Under the pieces are notes generated by a model. It searched no databases and had not been told where the DNA came from. It worked only from the letters and a program-made list of their open reading frames with translations. Shown piece after piece: positions 1,725 through 58,347 of a DNA stretch of 64,000 bases. Position 1 is the first letter of the stretch, and the number at the start of each line of letters is the position of its first letter. Made by a program: the position numbers and the translations under genes. The DNA is taken from positions 40,721-104,720 of the IMG/VR virus record IMGVR_UViG_2974499353_000001, one strand, 5' to 3'. The DNA comes from a virus. Its lineage: Duplodnaviria > Heunggongvirae > Uroviricota > Caudoviricetes > Ackermannviridae.

Positions 1725-1967
1725 TTAAATGAGTTTTTTAGATTTCAATTCACCCTTCAACAACCGAGCATCAGAACATTCAGCTGTTAGCCTTGACAGA
1801 AGAGGAGGCGTGATCAATTTTTTGACCTTTGCTTCTTCGATGTCATACTCTTCACAAACACTGGCCATCGTTTCAAGGATTGATTCCTTGCGTTGGCTTG
1901 CTCTCATCAACACCAATTCGGAAAAAGAATCTGGTGTGAGCACTTGTGCTATTTGTTGATCAGACAT
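1725..1967 (-). CDS. Hypothetical protein (about 80 aa). Start moved to the internal ATG (MSDQQ), which has SD AAGGGG.
   Basis: ORF track plus a Shine-Dalgarno sequence 9 nt upstream of the internal ATG. No motif. Confidence 0.4.
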   Translation of the reverse strand: MSDQQIAQVLTPDSFSELVLMRASQRKESILETMASVCEEYDIEEAKVKKLITPPLLSRLTAECSDARLLKGELKSKKLI

Positions 1968-2488: not shown

Positions 2489-3092
2489 TTCTTACACCTC
2501 TATTGAAATCAGGATAATTTTCTATGAAGTAAGGACCAGAAACCATATTTGCAAACGAATCCACGAGGTCATCGATTGGCTTTGGATCCTTCACATCCAA
2601 CATGTCCATTATACCGCGCATCTTAACGTTGAACAGCTTCTCAAAGTGATCTATCATGACCAATTTGTCGGCATTTCCTTTACCACAAAAATGTTTCTTA
2701 ACAAAAGACGGGGTAACAATCTGAAATTCCATATTGTTACGGCGCATCGCTTGTTTCAATAGAGATGTGTTCTCGGCGGTTTGGCATATGTTGTTGGAGT
2801 TTTTTGAATTCCCCATAGCATAGCCTTCTAGGGTGATGAAATCCGGCTTCTCTGTAAGAAGTACGGCTTCAGCCCATTTGGAAATGTTATAAAACCGTTC
2901 TTCGGGGGATTCATATTTGGGTTGACGTAAAATAAGAATATTGTGTCGCACTTGACGACAGTGCTTCTCAACGGTATGATGTGCATAGAAATGAAGATGA
3001 TCAAAATCCAGAGGATCTTTGTCGTCCCAGAAGCACATGGCTGGACAGCCGTAAGAATAGTCGATTCCGCAAAATTTCATAAAAATACCCAT
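2481..3092 (-). CDS. Putative RNase-H-fold nuclease, possibly a RuvC-like resolvase
   Basis: N-terminal motif FCGIDYSYGCPA resembles the RuvC/YqgF GID catalytic start. Later acidic residues (ITLEGY, MIDHFE). Weak assignment. Confidence 0.35.
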   Translation of the reverse strand: MGIFMKFCGIDYSYGCPAMCFWDDKDPLDFDHLHFYAHHTVEKHCRQVRHNILILRQPKYESPEERFYNISKWAEAVLLTEKPDFITLEGYAMGNSKNSNNICQTAENTSLLKQAMRRNNMEFQIVTPSFVKKHFCGKGNADKLVMIDHFEKLFNVKMRGIMDMLDVKDPKPIDDLVDSFANMVSGPYFIENYPDFNRGVRND

Positions 3093-3129
3093 AACGAAGT
3101 TTCATTGTGTTATGGGTATTTAGACCGGA

Positions 3130-14101: not shown

Positions 14102-14896
14102 TTAGCAGAAACTCTTGTATGCTGCCGCCAGTTTGGTGTCATACTGGTTCTTGGCGTATGCTGGACCATTGTACCGACGAGCAAACTCGGCCCAATTCTT
14201 GTTCTTCAGGGCTTTCCACATATTGGCATCAGCCTTGATGAACTTGACAAATGCCAGAAGGTGGGCGCGTTCACCAGTCAGGAAATCAGTGAACATCTCT
14301 TTGGCATTTGAATAGCCACAGATTTGGCAGTTGAACCCCATGATCTGGAATAGGCCGTAGGAAGCACTCTCGTAAGCGCAGTCCTCGTCAAGGGCGATTG
14401 CACCCTGAAGGCGTTCCAACTCCGCGTCTCCGCCGATATACCCGCCAGAATTGGGGTTAACCAATGTTGGGTAGAGTTGGTACAGAGCATTGGCTCTTGC
14501 TTGCCCGAATTTGGCCGTCACCTTTTTGTACATGATGTGGCGCTCAAACAGAGTTTTGATCTTGCCAGTTTTGGTAAAACCCGTGCCACGGGATTCTACC
14601 TGATTCACCGCTTTCATACTGGCCAGCTCAACACCAAGTTCACGTGCTGCGTCAACCAAGTCCGCTTCGGTCAGATGTTCCTGGTGAGCGTCTCCAGCGT
14701 TGCGGATAGCATAGAAGGTCTTTGGCCCAGCAATACCATCAATAACCAATCCAGCACCTGCCTGAACGGATTTGACGGCATTCTCTGTTGCCTTACCAAA
14801 TATGCCATCGGCTGTAAGAGAGAAACCGATTTTGTTGAGGCTTTGTTGAAGTGCTTTGACTTCAGAACCTCGGTTGCCAAGTTTTAGAATGGCCAT
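14102..14896 (-). CDS. Endolysin with an N-terminal peptidoglycan-binding domain and a C-terminal N-acetylmuramidase (DUF3380-type) domain
   Basis: PG_binding_1-like repeat (GSEVKALQQSLNKIGF...DGIFGKATENAV) and the muramidase signature SYGLFQIMGFN. Start moved to the ATG (MAILKLG), which has a GGAGGT SD. Confidence 0.75.
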   Translation of the reverse strand: MAILKLGNRGSEVKALQQSLNKIGFSLTADGIFGKATENAVKSVQAGAGLVIDGIAGPKTFYAIRNAGDAHQEHLTEADLVDAARELGVELASMKAVNQVESRGTGFTKTGKIKTLFERHIMYKKVTAKFGQARANALYQLYPTLVNPNSGGYIGGDAELERLQGAIALDEDCAYESASYGLFQIMGFNCQICGYSNAKEMFTDFLTGERAHLLAFVKFIKADANMWKALKNKNWAEFARRYNGPAYAKNQYDTKLAAAYKSFC

Positions 14897-14965
14897 AAGA
14901 AAATACCTCCGCAATGTATGCGAAGGTATTTAAAGTGAAAGTCGAACTTGAGGATTTAGTGTCGA

Positions 14966-40568: not shown

Positions 40569-40737
40569 CGTTTTGACCTTTTTGGGCTTTGGAGTGTTTG
40601 GAGTTCGCGTCGGCGTTCTCCAGCATAGTTTCAATGAAATCCCGGTTGTTTTCCATTTGGGCGACCAGAACATCACTGGGACGGAATGAATTGTCAAGAC
40701 AATCAAGTCCGGCGCGTTTTAATTTGTTGTCGGTCAT
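40561..40737 (-). CDS. Small acidic protein (about 58 aa), translationally coupled to the vWA gene
   Basis: ATG with SD GAGAG. The track start is a TTG. Confidence 0.4.
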   Translation of the reverse strand: MTDNKLKRAGLDCLDNSFRPSDVLVAQMENNRDFIETMLENADANSKHSKAQKGQNDD

Positions 40738-49275: not shown

Positions 49276-49959
49276 TTAATCCAGCTGCATGCCGACGTAA
49301 TAGTTGATGGTGCCGTCTGCGGATTGGAAGTTAACCAGTTGCATTTCGGCACAGGCGCGGATCACGTAGTTGCCTTCGATCATTTTCAGGTTGACCACAT
49401 CAACAGGCATAGCAAAATCACCCAGAGTTGTTTCACCCAACTCAACAGTGTAATCGTTGGAATTGTCGATGGTCGTGGTCGTGCCCACCAGACGAGTTTT
49501 ACCGCCGCTGGCAACCAGACGTACAGTTTTGTGACCCAGAGTAGAACAGGCGCGAGTCAGCTCTTTCATTTTTTCAGGAGTGACCGTTGCTTCAAATTCT
49601 ACAGACGGAAGATCGATGCTGTCTGCCGGAACGACAGTCAGTTCTTTAGCGGAACGCCAGAATTGCAGTTGGGAGTTTTCACCTTTCAGCAAAATGTGGT
49701 CTTCCGACATTTCAATTTTACCGCCTTTAAAACTCGGCAGACGCTGGATTGCCAGCAATTTGGTCAGATCCAGAATCGGGAATTCGAACGGGAAGTCTTC
49801 GTCAATGTCGGCAATAGCGATAACTGTACTGGAATCGTTAACAGTGCGCAACTTTTTACCAGGTGCCAGAACGATAGAGGGGCAGATGGTTTCAAAGTTA
49901 GCCAGCAGTTGTAAAGTGCGTTCGGAGAGAGTGATCTCTTGCATTAGTTGTATCCTCAA
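49276..49959 (-). CDS. 45: Sliding clamp gp45
   Basis: Size 227 aa. Position upstream of 44 and 62. N-terminus similar to T4 gp45 (LSERTLQLLANFETICPSIVLAPGKKL versus T4 LSKDTTALLKNFATINSGIMLKSGQFI). Confidence 0.8.
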   Translation of the reverse strand: MRIQLMQEITLSERTLQLLANFETICPSIVLAPGKKLRTVNDSSTVIAIADIDEDFPFEFPILDLTKLLAIQRLPSFKGGKIEMSEDHILLKGENSQLQFWRSAKELTVVPADSIDLPSVEFEATVTPEKMKELTRACSTLGHKTVRLVASGGKTRLVGTTTTIDNSNDYTVELGETTLGDFAMPVDVVNLKMIEGNYVIRACAEMQLVNFQSADGTINYYVGMQLD

Positions 49960-53423: not shown

Positions 53424-53921
53424 TTATTGTTTATCAATTTCGCGGGTGACGCGAGTCGGAGTCAGTTTCAAATATTTGAACGTAACAGTCGTGACCAGTT
53501 GGGGAACTGCAGCATCCACATCCACCAATACGTTATCCAAAGCTGTGGGACGGGCTTCTTCCAACAACAATTGTAGACCAACAGGGCGGTTCATGTTATC
53601 AAGAAGGTCGATGGTGATGTCACGGCTAACAGCTAAATCAGATCCAGCATTGGACGCAATCCAATTGTAAATCTGTTCCCAGTTGTACCAACTCTCATCG
53701 ATAACGAACGTAAATACGATGGGGTCATACGTGAGACGTTCTGAAGGTATGGAGTTGAGCACATCGCCAGGGGATGGACCCTCGATACCTTCAGAATACA
53801 CTCCAGGAATACTGAAGTCATGTATTGAACGAGTAAGCAATATCAGGTCTCCGATAGTTAAGCGCCATTTATCGGAAGCCGCGAAATTAGGATTTTCGTT
53901 TTTGAATTGTACACCTGTCAT
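53424..53921 (-). CDS. Tail-tube-fold protein (gp19 paralog; gp3, gp54 or gp48-like)
   Basis: The C-terminal pattern VGLQLLLEE...LVDVDAAV...VTTVTFKYL parallels the gp19 motif WTLQGGWPQNLGQLELDMSAMDSYTQFTVDLRY. Confidence 0.4.
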   Translation of the reverse strand: MTGVQFKNENPNFAASDKWRLTIGDLILLTRSIHDFSIPGVYSEGIEGPSPGDVLNSIPSERLTYDPIVFTFVIDESWYNWEQIYNWIASNAGSDLAVSRDITIDLLDNMNRPVGLQLLLEEARPTALDNVLVDVDAAVPQLVTTVTFKYLKLTPTRVTREIDKQ

Positions 53922-53984
53922 GTTAGCACCTTTGCTGTGGAGAACGTTTTAGTGTTCCTGACACGCGGATTCAGAAAATGGATC

Positions 53985-54605
53985 ATGACGATGATAATGG
54001 TGCTTGCACTCACAAGTTGCCGTATCTTTGTCACGTCCGTCATTTCTGTAACCGACCTCTGGGATCCTGAAATCAGAACCATACCTGTTAACATCTCAGC
54101 CGACATTGATAAATGCAATAAAAATATTCTGAATCAAGTAGTATCTGATTTTCAGAACTTCCAGACTCTTCAAGCTGTTGGTTGTTTTGATGATAACAAC
54201 CAGTCACTGAGACCATACTGGAAAACCACGATTCCCCTATTGAGGAAAGGTGACGAAGGAAAGATCCCATATCTATCCGCAAGTATTTATTACTCTCAGA
54301 ATAATAGCATCATAGCGACTTTCAACCCTTCTTTCTTTGACAAACTCAGAAGGAATACTCAAGCAAGGGACGTAGAAATCACCAGAGACGTTGCAATATC
54401 ATTTCAGATAGTTAATAACACCAAATCTCCGATCCGAATTGCCACTCAGGGTGTTTTCGTTAATGGATCTGCTGTGGGTAATGAAATGAACATCTATGAA
54501 ATAAGACCAGGCGGTAAAGTATGGATTCGAATGAGTGATGTTGGGGTGAACTCCCTGGTGATGGAAGGTATCGAACCAGTGGGAGTTCTCCCCGCTAGAC
54601 ATTGA
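53985..54605 (+). CDS. Putative lipoprotein (about 206 aa)
   Basis: Lipobox MTMIMVLALTSC. Start uncertain: the track starts at a TTG at 53907 and no strong SD is present. Confidence 0.4.
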   Translation: MTMIMVLALTSCRIFVTSVISVTDLWDPEIRTIPVNISADIDKCNKNILNQVVSDFQNFQTLQAVGCFDDNNQSLRPYWKTTIPLLRKGDEGKIPYLSASIYYSQNNSIIATFNPSFFDKLRRNTQARDVEITRDVAISFQIVNNTKSPIRIATQGVFVNGSAVGNEMNIYEIRPGGKVWIRMSDVGVNSLVMEGIEPVGVLPARH

Positions 54606-55334
54606 TTATTTCAGGGACTCTTTTAATTCTGGAGTCCCTATTTTATCAATGACGCCTCCAGCACAGAGATCTTTGGCCCATTCTCCAAGAACATTCGCAA
54701 AAGAGAAGTTTAGACATTCTTTGATCATACTTTCAATATGAGCAAGTTCTGCAGCTATCCCATCGGTGATATCATTTATAACTCCATTGACGGCGGTTAT
54801 TGCCTCATTGATATGTCCTGTTACTTCAGCAGCCAATTGCTGTAGTTTTGCCATCCCTTCTGAGGCACCTTCCATAATCATGTCATACAATTCCGATATC
54901 TTGTTAGTCACAGTCTGGAGAGCGCCTTCCATAGCGTTTAACCATTGGCGGCCTAGATCCTGAACAACACCGAATGCTTTGTTGATCAGGTCACAATTGT
55001 TTGGTTCCCGTGATATACTTTTCAAACCTGATTTATATGAAACGGAAGTCCCAATTCTTGAATACGCTTCATTTATGCTCTGGTCGCCATATGTGTTCAG
55101 TGTCGTTATCCCCGTGTTGGCAGAGCTATACATGTTTGTGGCTGCTGTAAGTTTATCTGGTGTTAATCCACCTGCTGACATAGCCACCTGCATTTCCGGA
55201 GTCGCGTTGGCAGTTATCAATGGTATATTGGTACTACCACTGGTGATTAAATCCTGTGAGGGACCGGAGAGGGACGGAAGCGGATTGCTAAATGCGTTAC
55301 CAGAGGAAAGGACATCGTAGATTTGTGCGTTCAT
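54606..55334 (-). CDS. Hypothetical protein (242 aa) with a Ser/Thr/Ala-rich N-terminus and a helical C-terminus
   Basis: ORF track. Confidence 0.5.
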   Translation of the reverse strand: MNAQIYDVLSSGNAFSNPLPSLSGPSQDLITSGSTNIPLITANATPEMQVAMSAGGLTPDKLTAATNMYSSANTGITTLNTYGDQSINEAYSRIGTSVSYKSGLKSISREPNNCDLINKAFGVVQDLGRQWLNAMEGALQTVTNKISELYDMIMEGASEGMAKLQQLAAEVTGHINEAITAVNGVINDITDGIAAELAHIESMIKECLNFSFANVLGEWAKDLCAGGVIDKIGTPELKESLK

Positions 55335-55364
55335 AAAAATACCCCCAATTTTGGGGGTATTTAA

Positions 55365-55535
55365 TCATGGTAGATGATAAATAAAGTTTTCTGAGAACTT
55401 TTTGGCAAACTTCTTCAGAAAGATGAATTTGGGGTCACGTGGGATACCCTTCATGTCATCTAAAGTAATAAAACAGATGCGCGCCATGAAGTACATGGTA
55501 AATGCGACACAAAGCACCAACAGTATTTGTAACAT
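55365..55535 (-). CDS. Small single-pass membrane protein (about 56 aa)
   Basis: ATG with SD GAGGAG. Helix LQILLVLCVAFTMYFMARICFI. Late-promoter box upstream. Confidence 0.45.
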   Translation of the reverse strand: MLQILLVLCVAFTMYFMARICFITLDDMKGIPRDPKFIFLKKFAKKFSENFIYHLP

Positions 55536-55562
55536 GGTATAACTCCTCATGGGTGGCAAATT

Positions 55563-55570
55563 TATTTATA
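55563..55570 (-). promoter_or_regulatory. T4 late promoter box TATAAATA
   Basis: Exact consensus on the minus strand, about 27 nt upstream of the ATG at 55535. Confidence 0.55.
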
Positions 55571-55988
55571 ACAATCGTTTGGTTTTGGGTTTGCCCATGA
55601 GAGTGATATTGACATTTATTCCCGCTTTCTTCATGCGCTTGATCATGTCTTGCGTCCCAGTAGACGAACCATCCCATAATGCAATTCCAAAGACCTCAAG
55701 ATCTTTTTGCTTCGCCAATGTTAGAGCCTTGTCCAGCATATCTTTGTTACGTTGATTGCCCGCACCTTTCCCATATAACGTATGGTAATTTTGAGGAATC
55801 GGCATTGGTGTAATATGCACATAATTGATTTCACACCAATCACGGGATATCAGATCCACACCTACTGCTTCACCTTCAATAAACGTCTCTATCTCGTGAG
55901 GGATTAAGAGTTCATCTAATTTGGCAAATATTTTGCCCCGCTCAGTTATAGAACGGGAACCCGTTATAAGAACGATATACTTCTTCAT
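55566..55988 (-). CDS. SLOG-superfamily (DUF2493/YspA-like) protein
   Basis: VLITGSRS...GEAVGVDLISRDW...GKGAGNQRNKDML...WDGSSTGTQDMIKRMKKAGI follows the DUF2493 pattern. Confidence 0.55.
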   Translation of the reverse strand: MKKYIVLITGSRSITERGKIFAKLDELLIPHEIETFIEGEAVGVDLISRDWCEINYVHITPMPIPQNYHTLYGKGAGNQRNKDMLDKALTLAKQKDLEVFGIALWDGSSTGTQDMIKRMKKAGINVNITLMGKPKTKRLL

Positions 55989-55993
55989 AGAAC

Positions 55994-56317
55994 TCACAGC
56001 GCCCCAAGATTGCCGATTACATACAGGCTGCACAAGGGAGTCCCTGATGAACGAGGTTCGATCGTCATCCCGCTCAGGCGGATCAGTTCCAGTAAGCCGT
56101 CAGTGGTCTGATACGCGCGTGTCGAACCGTTCGGTCGATATAGCTCCAGCTCAGTTCGCCCTTCCTTTAATGCATTGCGGATGCGAGTGAACACGCTGTG
56201 GCCTTGATATTTTTGACGTAGAATATCTAAACGGGTGATGAGATTTCGACTGCGGCTGCGACTGCGACGTCCCGTTGACGAAACAACTAATTTCATTTCT
56301 GGTGTTTTACAAGCCAT
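55994..56317 (-). CDS. Hypothetical Arg-rich protein (107 aa)
   Basis: ORF track. Confidence 0.4.
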   Translation of the reverse strand: MACKTPEMKLVVSSTGRRSRSRSRNLITRLDILRQKYQGHSVFTRIRNALKEGRTELELYRPNGSTRAYQTTDGLLELIRLSGMTIEPRSSGTPLCSLYVIGNLGAL

Positions 56318-56385
56318 GTTATAGTCCTCTATTTGTAGGGGTTGGGTATGATTTTAACATACCCGTTCAAATGGTTTAGAACAAA

Positions 56386-56850: not shown

Positions 56851-56894
56851 GATGTAGTTCCTTCATTTCAGAGTCAGTGTTGTGCTGCTTATGG

Positions 56895-56945
56895 AATGAA
56901 GTATACGGGGTTTATTGAAGAAGTAAACCCCGTTTATTGAATAAA
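56895..56945 (-). promoter_or_regulatory. Early promoter cassette (GGGGTTTACTTCTTCAATAAACCCCG TATACT)
   Basis: A hairpin encloses the -35 box. Shares the 16-mer TTATTGAAGAAGTAAA with the cassette at 21703..21718. Confidence 0.55.
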
Positions 56946-56953
56946 TTTTAAAT

Positions 56954-57699: not shown

Positions 57700-58347
57700 C
57701 TACATGAAATCTTTTACCCATTCAGAGTCTTCCATAGGAACCCAATTTTCGTATTTGAACATTTTGTACATGTTATAGAATACTCGAATATTATTCCCGT
57801 CGTTCATACGGTTACAAAATCGTTCATGCCCCCAACCTTCATTCTTCCATAATTGATAGAATTGGTCAGCCATAGCCCAAACGTGTTGTAATGGTTTGGC
57901 TCTAGGTCGATTCCATATCCTCACGCTTGCTTGATATTTGATCTGGGCTTGCCGTGATGTTTCCGAAAATCCAATTGGTTTGTTCTTTCCTCTTGTTACG
58001 TTAGACAAATGCGCCTTTGCTTCTTCACTGAGTGGCCCAGTCCTTCCAAAATAAACGAGGGAACCATCTTTCTTAACATGGAAACGATTTAAACAAAGAG
58101 GATTGGTGTGAACGGATTCGATCAATTGCGCTTCAACTTGGAGGGCTTCCTCTCCATCCTGACATAGCATTATTACTTCATGGGTGAAGTAATCTGGCCC
58201 ATGTTGTGATATAAGGGATTGGACGACTTTCGAGGACGTGAAATATTTTACCCAAAGTTCTTTGGGGTGACAGTTCTTTGCGTGACGGCATCCATAATAG
58301 ATGTGCCCATCTTTTGATTCTATTTTGTAAACGTATGGTTGGTTCAT
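57700..58347 (-). CDS. GIY-YIG homing endonuclease (Seg-like) downstream of gene 23
   Basis: GIY-YIG core YVYKIESKDGHIYYGCR. The C-terminal module WAMADQFYQLWK...MYKMFKYENWVPMEDSEWVKDF is homologous to the HNH enzyme C-terminus. Confidence 0.8.
   Translation of the reverse strand: MNQPYVYKIESKDGHIYYGCRHAKNCHPKELWVKYFTSSKVVQSLISQHGPDYFTHEVIMLCQDGEEALQVEAQLIESVHTNPLCLNRFHVKKDGSLVYFGRTGPLSEEAKAHLSNVTRGKNKPIGFSETSRQAQIKYQASVRIWNRPRAKPLQHVWAMADQFYQLWKNEGWGHERFCNRMNDGNNIRVFYNMYKMFKYENWVPMEDSEWVKDFM

Follow-up and report, generated by a model that had tools for sequence, protein, structure and literature searches.

A SLOG-domain protein of Kuttervirus phages with a candidate sliding-clamp-binding tail

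The SLOG gene, its family and its predicted pocket

The stretch of DNA studied here (hereafter the window) comprises 64,000 nucleotides of a tailed virus (IMG/VR record IMGVR_UViG_2974499353_000001, positions 40,721 to 104,720) and encodes, on its minus strand, a 140-residue protein of the SLOG superfamily, to which this work is devoted. A 1.1-kb query taken from the locus matched Salmonella phages S115, S118 and rabagast at 100% identity and Escherichia phage CBA120 at 98%, which assigns the window to Kuttervirus (Ackermannviridae; ViI/CBA120-like myoviruses). The motifs of the protein, the contexts of its relatives in other phages and a C-terminal tail in common with the late-transcription coactivator gp33 all point towards a function in DNA replication or recombination, or one linked to the sliding clamp. 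The gene and the parts of it on which this argument relies are the following.

55566 to 55988, minus strand: SLOG/YAcAr (DUF2493) gene, ATG start, 140 residues; equivalent to CBA120 orf174, with the RefSeq label 'GTP-binding domain'
55953 to 55961, minus strand: motif 1, G10-S11-R12, equivalent to the 'G-S/T/A-R' motif by which DprA binds single-stranded DNA (ssDNA) (PMC3950713)
55854 to 55874, minus strand: motif 2, G39-E-A-V-G43-V-D45, the SG-A-x-G-x-D loop, which aligns to DprA 'SGxAxGID'
55746 to 55763, minus strand: motif 3, A76-G77-N-Q-R80-N81, in a long helix, equivalent to DprA 'F/L/Y-x-x-R-N/D' with the aromatic residue replaced by Gly
55653 to 55676, minus strand: motif 4, W105-D-G-S-S-T-G111-T112, phosphate-loop equivalent of LOG 'PGGxGTxxE'
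55569 to 55595, minus strand: candidate sliding-clamp-binding tail, G132-KPKTKRLL140, predicted to be disordered; proposed from conservation, from the predicted local distance difference test score (pLDDT) and from a position-specific scoring matrix (PSSM) of gp33 tails

An earlier note, written from the letters of the window, had described this open reading frame (ORF) as a DUF2493-like SLOG protein and had quoted several strings from its translation. We found all of these strings in the ORF, and the family assignment was borne out by a match to Pfam PF10686 (YAcAr; residues 5-56, E = 1.3e-7, 31.7 bits for a gathering cut-off of 28.2). The same Pfam family is precomputed on all 33 close homologues bar 2 truncated fragments, and the protein also matches PHROG 289 (E = 5.5e-42). 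The assignment is already public: UniRef names the homologues 'YspA cpYpsA-related SLOG domain-containing protein'. A profile search for YAcAr/DUF2493, a branch of the YpsA-like SLOG clade, returned 18,268 cluster representatives at E ≤ 0.001, mostly stand-alone proteins of 115-140 residues, and tblastn with the single sequence located the family in 535 phage records belonging to many lineages. The protein is a direct member of this family, of the usual stand-alone size and with all the residues that are invariant family-wide; it differs from the other members by a 9-residue invariant C-terminal tail, which is present in the Ackermannviridae subfamily only. Searches of NCBIfam, PADLOC and PDB sequences with the single protein gave no match, and we found neither an experimentally characterised member nor a solved structure of the family.

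An AlphaFold2 model obtained with 20 homologues (pLDDT 93.2) displays alternating strands and helices in a Rossmann-like three-layer fold, nearest to known SLOG structures, with disorder at the last residues only. In the fold comparison, YpsA, the SLOG domain of ThsA and DprA obtained about equal scores. By sequence, the family is closest to DprA. With a profile of 67 members, the best solved relative was DprA (3uqz, E = 0.0023), the 'GSR' and 'SG-A-x-G-x-D' segments being aligned; Pfam DprA (PF02481) was matched by 36 of the 67 members at E ≤ 0.1, for 4 that matched YpsA, 4 cpYpsA and a single one LOG (Lysine_decarbox). The best PF02481 match of a relative reached E = 1.2e-8, those checked singly staying below the 29.6-bit cut-off, and PF02481 is co-annotated on 30 of the best 120 database matches. 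The SLOG protein of the window gave no match to PF02481 at E ≤ 1, and it is therefore not a member of the DprA family.

Conservation was computed family-wide over the 67 members, which are diverse (25-76% identity). G10, G39, G43, D45, R80, N81 and G111 are invariant, and R12, A41, A76, G77, M84, S109 and T112 are conserved in at least 90% of the members. These residues cluster in four loops, G10-S-R12, G39-x-A41-x-G43-x-D45, A76-G77-x-x-R80-N81 (followed by M84) and S109-x-G111-T112, which it is reasonable to regard as a nucleotide-binding pocket. Work on H. pylori DprA by co-crystallisation and mutagenesis showed that 'G-S/T/A-R' and 'F/L/Y-x-x-R-N/D' are essential for ssDNA binding, Arg52 being the gate of the pocket and Arg143 and Asn144 holding an inserted thymine (PMC3950713). 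The first of these motifs is found as G10-S11-R12; for the second, R80 and N81 are invariant but the first residue, aromatic or aliphatic in DprA, is an invariant Gly77. Motif 2 carries a GxD/E signature, which is that of the YpsA clade (PMC6459960). DprA/Smf, a RecA-loading mediator on ssDNA, differs from the SLOG protein in being about twice its size, with extra N- and C-terminal domains for which 140 residues leave no room, and in having an aromatic stacking residue where the SLOG protein has Gly.

The 'PGGxGTxxE' motif of LOG proteins carries a catalytic glutamate. In the SLOG protein the corresponding segment reads W-D-G-S-S-T-G-T-Q-D-M, and the position of this Glu, three residues after the Thr, is occupied by an invariant Met115, so the N-glycosidase motif of LOG is not found. 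Judged from its residues, the pocket looks like a nucleotide or base pocket of the DprA type devoid of the LOG catalytic residue. Identity to Bacillus YpsA and to the SLOG domain of ThsA, the 3'cADPR sensor of Thoeris, amounts to 15-18%. Unlike ThsA, the protein has no SIR2 or other effector domain and no defence-island or NAD-related context, and the ThsA-type combination of a SLOG domain with a SIR2 or Macro effector and a TIR signal producer was not found.

The C-terminal tail and its likeness to gp33

The protein ends in L-M-G-K-P-K-T-K-R-L-L. In homologues of 44-99% identity, G132, P134, K135, K137, R138 and L139 of this tail are invariant, and K133, T136 and L140 show conservative variation in a few of them; residues 136-140 are modelled with a pLDDT below 50. 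In 9 locus sequences from several genera we observed no amino-acid change in the tail and a synonymous change at nearly every codon (GGC/GGG/GGT, AAA/AAG, CCC/CCG/CCT/CCA, CGA/CGT/CGC, TTG/CTT/CTG). Since third positions are free while the amino acids are fixed, purifying selection acts on the tail peptide. An overlapping DNA or RNA signal, namely a late promoter, was considered as the source of this conservation and rejected, because third codon positions vary and the overlap with the late-promoter consensus TATAAATA is restricted to Kuttervirus. The tail was not present in 9 YAcAr proteins of other phages, and the matches of distant relatives stop near residue 128. In divergent uncultured relatives, the SLOG protein ends in KSRRLI or KTKRLM instead of KTKRLL; these two endings are known from contigs of 1.3 and 4.4 kb and no cultured phage carries them.

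The C-termini of all ORFs were then scanned, over the window as well as over 156 kb of CBA120. A single other protein with such a tail was found, an 80-residue 'late promoter transcriptional regulator' ending in LLKGELKSKKLI, which is the homologue of gp33. This gene and that of the sliding clamp lie as follows.

1725 to 1967, minus strand: gp33 homologue, late-transcription coactivator, 80 residues, PF16805 at E = 4.6e-19; last residues LKSKKLI (1728 to 1748)
49276 to 49944, minus strand: gp45 sliding-clamp homologue, annotated as gp45 in CBA120

The C-terminus of gp33 was compared between phages.

Kuttervirus: KSKKLI
Taipeivirus: KSKKIL
Agtrevirus: KSKKLV
Limestonevirus: KSKKLV
Miltonvirus: RSKKLI
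Vibrio phage D504: KTRKLF
Vibrio phage VP-1: KTKRIL(K)

The gp33 tails of 7 Ackermannviridae genera fit [KR][ST][KR][KR][LI][LIVF], and the gp33 proteins of Vibrio phages D504 and VP-1 have an overall identity of 27-36% only. The SLOG tail agrees with the epitope in which gp33 ends, K[ST]K[KR]L[LI]. With a PSSM made from gp33 tails only, it scored 12.06 and ranked second among 498 ORFs, after gp33 itself, the next ORF reaching 2.42. Only 1 in 2,000,000 random 7-mers scored as high, corresponding to a Bonferroni-corrected p of about 2.5e-4 over the 498 ORFs.

The gp33 of T4 ends in a 7-residue sliding-clamp-binding motif (SCBM; PMC7892883, PMC2988020). Activation of the late genes requires this motif, which can be exchanged for those of gp55 and DNA polymerase and is also found in DNA ligase (PMC2988020, PMC7892883). 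Based on its position, which is that of the T4 motif, and on the homology of the two gp33 proteins, the gp33 tail of Ackermannviridae should be its clamp-binding motif. The SLOG tail has the features of such a clamp client, a short flexible C-terminal peptide (from the pLDDT) resembling that of another client (from the gp33-tail PSSM). Likewise, the SCBM of T4 (gp33, gp55, gp43, DNA ligase) is a short C-terminal peptide on a flexible linker, common to unrelated proteins. The two differ in their chemistry: hydrophobic and acidic residues make up the T4 motif, while the epitope of Ackermannviridae consists of basic residues followed by two aliphatic ones.

Genomic contexts and candidate functions

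Along the minus strand of the window, the major capsid protein gp23 is followed by a GIY-YIG homing endonuclease, several small ORFs, orf176 and orf175; then come the SLOG gene, a 56-residue hydrophobic peptide, DUF7217, a DUF7424 gene on the opposite strand and gp3, and finally UvsY, a PD-(D/E)xK exonuclease, a UvsW-type helicase and the gp45 clamp with the clamp loader. UvsY, the exonuclease and the helicase are about 2-5 kb away from the SLOG gene, on the same strand. The immediate neighbours are these.

55994 to 56317, minus strand: orf175, basic (pI 10.6), with a variable Arg/Lys-rich disordered N-terminus and a highly conserved 70-residue C-terminal domain
55365 to 55535, minus strand: orf173, 56-residue peptide with an N-terminal hydrophobic, transmembrane-like segment; PHROG 4845, function unknown
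54606 to 55334, minus strand: DUF7217 protein, 242 residues, probable virion protein; PF23854 at E = 1.2e-102

The order orf175-like gene, SLOG gene, small peptide and DUF7217 is kept in Kuttervirus, Agtrevirus, Limestonevirus, Miltonvirus and an uncultured relative, and its part from SLOG to DUF7217 also in Taipeivirus and in the group of Erwinia phage Bue1. Between genera, identity ranges from 44 to 76% for the SLOG protein, from 47 to 68% for DUF7217 and from 45 to 52% for UvsY, which two of the loci cover. On these comparisons, the SLOG gene is a syntenic core gene, evolving as core replication and structural genes do, rather than an accessory gene of patchy distribution. Translation of orf175 stops 5 nt ahead of the SLOG ATG; this junction has the same sequence in 3 genera, the two genes overlapping in phiMAM1 and abutting in the metagenomic contig L004; this suggests that they are co-translated and that their products perhaps form a complex. 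Both proteins are basic, with a pI of 9.3 for the SLOG protein and of 10.6 for that of orf175; searches for the fold of the latter yielded no assignment.

Outside Ackermannviridae, we read 9 independent neighbourhoods, plus two further fusions. In these 11 other phage lineages, the gene is mostly beside, or fused to, helicases, DNA polymerase or recombinases. It comes right after DNA polymerase genes in Jedunavirus, 10 nt upstream of a Dda-like helicase in Vibrio phage ValKK3 and next to a DEAD/ResIII helicase in the metagenomic contig L015. In Campylobacter phage F372 it is 2 genes away from a UvsX-like recombinase (a homing endonuclease and a small gene standing between them) and 2 before ribonucleotide reductase, and in Gordonia phage Sixama, whose record calls it 'DprA-like', it lies between a RuvC-like resolvase and a helicase, a Cas4-family exonuclease and RecA. 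Two other contigs place it near a PD-(D/E)xK nuclease (faint Pfam match) and an AAA_24 ATPase (weak Pfam match) (L017), and near an ExoX-like exonuclease, an RNA ligase and a kinase/HD gene (L016).

Fusions have been described: DUF2493 is the C-terminus of an SF1B helicase in HelB of Vibrio phage ICP1 and in a Pseudoalteromonas phage, and 3 Streptomyces DciA helicase operators bear the domain. In Pseudoalteromonas phage H101 and Brevundimonas phage Leszy, the tblastn match falls under annotated helicase genes. When fusions were counted in the profile search, the best 120 matches were all stand-alone proteins; the evidence for fusion therefore comes from the literature and from these two phage records. 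A link to the leading regions of conjugative plasmids was also considered and discarded, 31 of the 32 plasmid records being non-mobilizable.

We propose, with moderate confidence, that the protein may be a DprA-like module for binding nucleotides or ssDNA which is docked on the gp45 clamp. The four conserved loops would form one pocket gripping a nucleotide moiety, and we infer that this would most likely be the base and phosphate of ssDNA, as in DprA, rather than a free nucleotide. In Ackermannviridae, the domain would have gained a short disordered basic-hydrophobic peptide, GKPKTKRLL, with the epitope that ends gp33, and this peptide would, by analogy with T4, dock the protein onto gp45. 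The protein would then travel with clamps that have been loaded at primer-template junctions, nicks or recombination intermediates, as an accessory factor tethered to the clamp while phage DNA replicates or recombines; the product of orf175, whose translation is coupled to that of the SLOG gene, may take part as well. Such a role would account for the motifs, for the association of the family with helicases, polymerases and recombinases, for the behaviour of a core gene, for the basic charge and for the tail.

More tentatively, and as a claim that we hold possible rather than probable, the protein would be the first sliding-clamp client of the SLOG superfamily, by way of a basic clamp-binding motif not recognised before, K-[ST]-K-[KR]-L-[LI]-COOH, common with gp33, and the DUF2493 family would be an accessory of replication and recombination that works with helicases and clamps, and not an immune module linked to NAD or ADPR. 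What is new here is the argument that places the family with DNA replication and recombination over NAD signalling, the subfamily-specific invariant tail and the statistically strong match of this tail to the clamp-binding position of gp33. DUF2493/YAcAr proteins are among the commoner unexplained small proteins of tailed phages, many records labelling them 'GTP-binding domain', for which we found no basis, and at present the protein stands as an annotated family member with an inferred function. If the clamp docking is true, it would define a clamp-binding motif of Ackermannviridae that is chemically unlike that of T4, add a new kind of tool to the 'toolbelt' of the phage clamp and redirect the annotation of thousands of phage genes.

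Several observations weigh against this proposal. The SLOG protein itself has no Pfam DprA match, and the aromatic residue of the second DprA motif is a Gly. In this phage, virion genes stand between the SLOG gene and the recombination genes, and the contexts in Seuratvirus, in an Alteromonas phage and in the contig that carries P0241 are uninformative. An ADP-ribosylglycohydrolase is encoded 5 genes away in the N4-like phage KP8, and SLOG-Macro and SLOG-NADAR fusions have been reported in other viruses (Iyer et al. 2022, PMC9503650). As for the clamp, the Pfam match of the gp45 homologue to gp45-slide_C is weak and falls below threshold (E = 8e-4, 19.9 bits for a cut-off of 25). Since the epitope is basic and the T4 motif hydrophobic and acidic, the gp33 tail of Ackermannviridae may bind a partner other than gp45. 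In addition, DNA polymerase ends in KRRVNLLSMMGKKG and gp55 in EREQQNNGDC, neither of which fits the motif, and clamp docking may work otherwise in Ackermannviridae than in T4. In CBA120, DNA polymerase is encoded at 145008-148004 and gp55 (263 residues) at 67631-68422, without a comparable C-terminal motif.

The sharing of the tail with gp33, whose contact with the clamp is needed for late activation in T4, could also mean that the SLOG protein is a regulator of late transcription, competing with gp33 or joining it on gp45 while its pocket senses a dNTP, an NTP or an alarmone, and so timing or throttling the late genes. SLOG domains are often ligand sensors, and the gene belongs to a late-gene block, directly upstream of a T4-type late-promoter consensus. 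We nevertheless consider this unlikely: the rest of the family, which has no tail, associates with helicases, polymerases and recombinases and not with transcription factors, no transcription-related neighbour is conserved, and the idea is wholly inferential.

The earlier note had proposed that the protein acts as a sponge for the signals of CBASS or Thoeris, or processes NAD metabolites. A general computational prediction that viral SLOG domains counter immune signals derived from NAD or ADPR had already been published (Iyer et al. 2022, PMC9503650), and it is the sole functional prediction for DUF2493/YAcAr in the literature. Applied to this protein, the SLOG pocket would sequester or cleave 2'/3'cADPR, another ADPR-derived molecule or a cyclic nucleotide, and thereby blunt abortive infection by Thoeris or CBASS. 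This accounts for the SLOG fold, and if it were true the protein would be the first SLOG-fold sponge, but nothing that we found supports it here and we judge it, too, unlikely. No Macro, NADAR, Nudix, ARG or TIR gene adjoins the SLOG gene in the window, and Macro, NADAR, Nudix and TIR neighbours, like ARG ones, were not seen adjoining it in the 9 neighbourhoods read. The annotation of CBA120 comprises T4-like genes for replication and recombination along with a single ADP-ribosyltransferase; Macro, NADAR, Nudix, ARG and TIR genes are not annotated there, a weak negative because most CBA120 genes are labelled 'hypothetical'.

Sponges of the Tad1, Tad2 and Acb2 type are accessory genes with a patchy distribution. 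The SLOG gene is instead a syntenic core gene, conserved in the manner of UvsY, and its surroundings are virion and recombination genes, not early genes of host takeover. Tad1, Tad2, Acb2 and similar sponges are likewise small stand-alone phage proteins with a nucleotide pocket; we found no relation of sequence or fold between them and the SLOG protein, which had no PADLOC match and no Tad or Acb structure among the fold matches listed. Moreover, a sponge model gives no role to the invariant tail that recurs in gp33, and the position of the LOG-type catalytic Glu is a Met.

The protein could lastly be a nucleotide-processing enzyme, an N-glycosidase of the LOG/PpnN type or a related hydrolase, whose substrate would be a free (deoxy)nucleotide or a flipped-out DNA base, for instance in pool sanitation or in a step tied to the thymidine hypermodification of ViI-like phages. 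Structural neighbours of the LOG/PpnN type (1rcu, 5ajt, 9us2, 5wq3, 3bq9) were obtained, D45 (invariant family-wide) or D106 (invariant within Ackermannviridae) could be catalytic, tethering to the clamp would suit an enzyme working on newly made DNA, and homologues occur in Seuratvirus and in Campylobacter phages, which have modified DNA as well. We regard this as the least probable of the alternatives, since the LOG glutamate is replaced by an invariant Met and Pfam LOG is touched by one member of the 67, the family is found in many phages with ordinary DNA (Gordonia, Bacillus, Klebsiella Jedunavirus and N4-like phages), the gene is not adjacent to the hydroxymethylase, kinase and PLP genes of CBA120, and DprA has the same conserved Asp and Arg-Asn yet is no enzyme (PMC3950713). 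The probability that remains goes to an explanation outside those listed here.

Promoter elements, hairpins and neighbouring genes

A promoter-like element lies at the end of the SLOG gene.

55563 to 55570, minus strand: TATAAATA, a match to the late-promoter consensus of T4 type; it overlaps the stop codon of the SLOG gene, and the next ATG follows 27 nt downstream

Its position suits the GAGGAG Shine-Dalgarno sequence of the 56-residue ORF. At the same spot, [ACG]ATAAATA is found in AG3, PP35 and contig L004 and is not found in KN2-1; 4 of 6 distinct genus-level sequences have an element of the ATAAATA type at this position. In the window, TATAAATA occurs 2 times for 1.97 expected, that is without enrichment, and NATAAATA has 6 sites. 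A late promoter for the membrane peptide, as the earlier note had it, is plausible. The T4-type consensus was rejected as a general late-promoter signal: with so few TATAAATA and NATAAATA sites in 64 kb, the late promoters of this phage are not readable from it. We found no Ackermannviridae transcriptome in the literature. The position of orf173 is kept and its sequence only weakly so (33-40% identity).

DUF7217 is always downstream of the SLOG gene in Ackermannviridae. Purified virions of phage Sajous1 were found to contain gp166, a 'putative structural protein' (PMC10892097), which by gene order is likely to be the DUF7217 orthologue; no SLOG-like protein appears in the examined parts of this proteome table, which is that of a close relative (PMC10892097). 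DUF7217 has a weak Baculo_PEP_C-like segment. The DUF7424 gene (53907-54605, plus strand) is convergent to it and always its partner, both being uncharacterised conserved proteins of Ackermannviridae. In Klebsiella phage 0507-KN2-1 (locus L013), one annotated ORF of 289 residues (2026-2895) runs from the small-peptide region into DUF7217, where two genes are annotated in other genera; the two are truly fused in Taipeivirus, or else the annotated start lies too far upstream.

The profile PHROG 289 is a composite with respect to this locus (54606-55988, minus strand), the SLOG protein matching its positions 20-146 and the unrelated DUF7217 its positions 259-500. The ORFs of the SLOG protein, the 56-residue peptide and DUF7217 share one reading frame in Kuttervirus only. 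A natural SLOG-DUF7217 fusion or read-through was rejected, since the other genera are not in frame and there is no fused protein among the 150 + 120 relatives listed. The composite profile and the 'GTP-binding domain' label are best seen as artefacts of clustering and annotation, and the label appears baseless.

Stem-loops precede orf176 (56851-56950, minus strand; ACGGGGTTTA...TAAACCCCGT) and orf175 (56318-56385, minus strand; GGGTATG...CATACCC); they were not called by the terminator scan, and they hint that transcripts are delimited or processed around the orf175-SLOG pair. We also observed 3 copies of a hairpin with the stem AAATACC...GGTATTT, at 55335-55364, about 3080-3123 and about 14890-14933, all on the minus strand, which the terminator scan did not call either. 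Each copy ends in TATTTTT or TATTTTC, 0 or 3 nt before an ATG start codon. The copy TTAAATACCCCCAAAATTGGGGGTATTTTTATG, for example, precedes the DUF7217 gene, with a possible G-rich ribosome-binding stretch inside the stem. These hairpins may be a ViI-type promoter or a translational control element.

Between the block of small ORFs and the major capsid gene, the GIY-YIG homing endonuclease (57700-58347, minus strand) is a SegE-like protein of 215 residues. The offset between the coordinates of the window and those of CBA120 changes across this region, which indicates an indel difference between the two.

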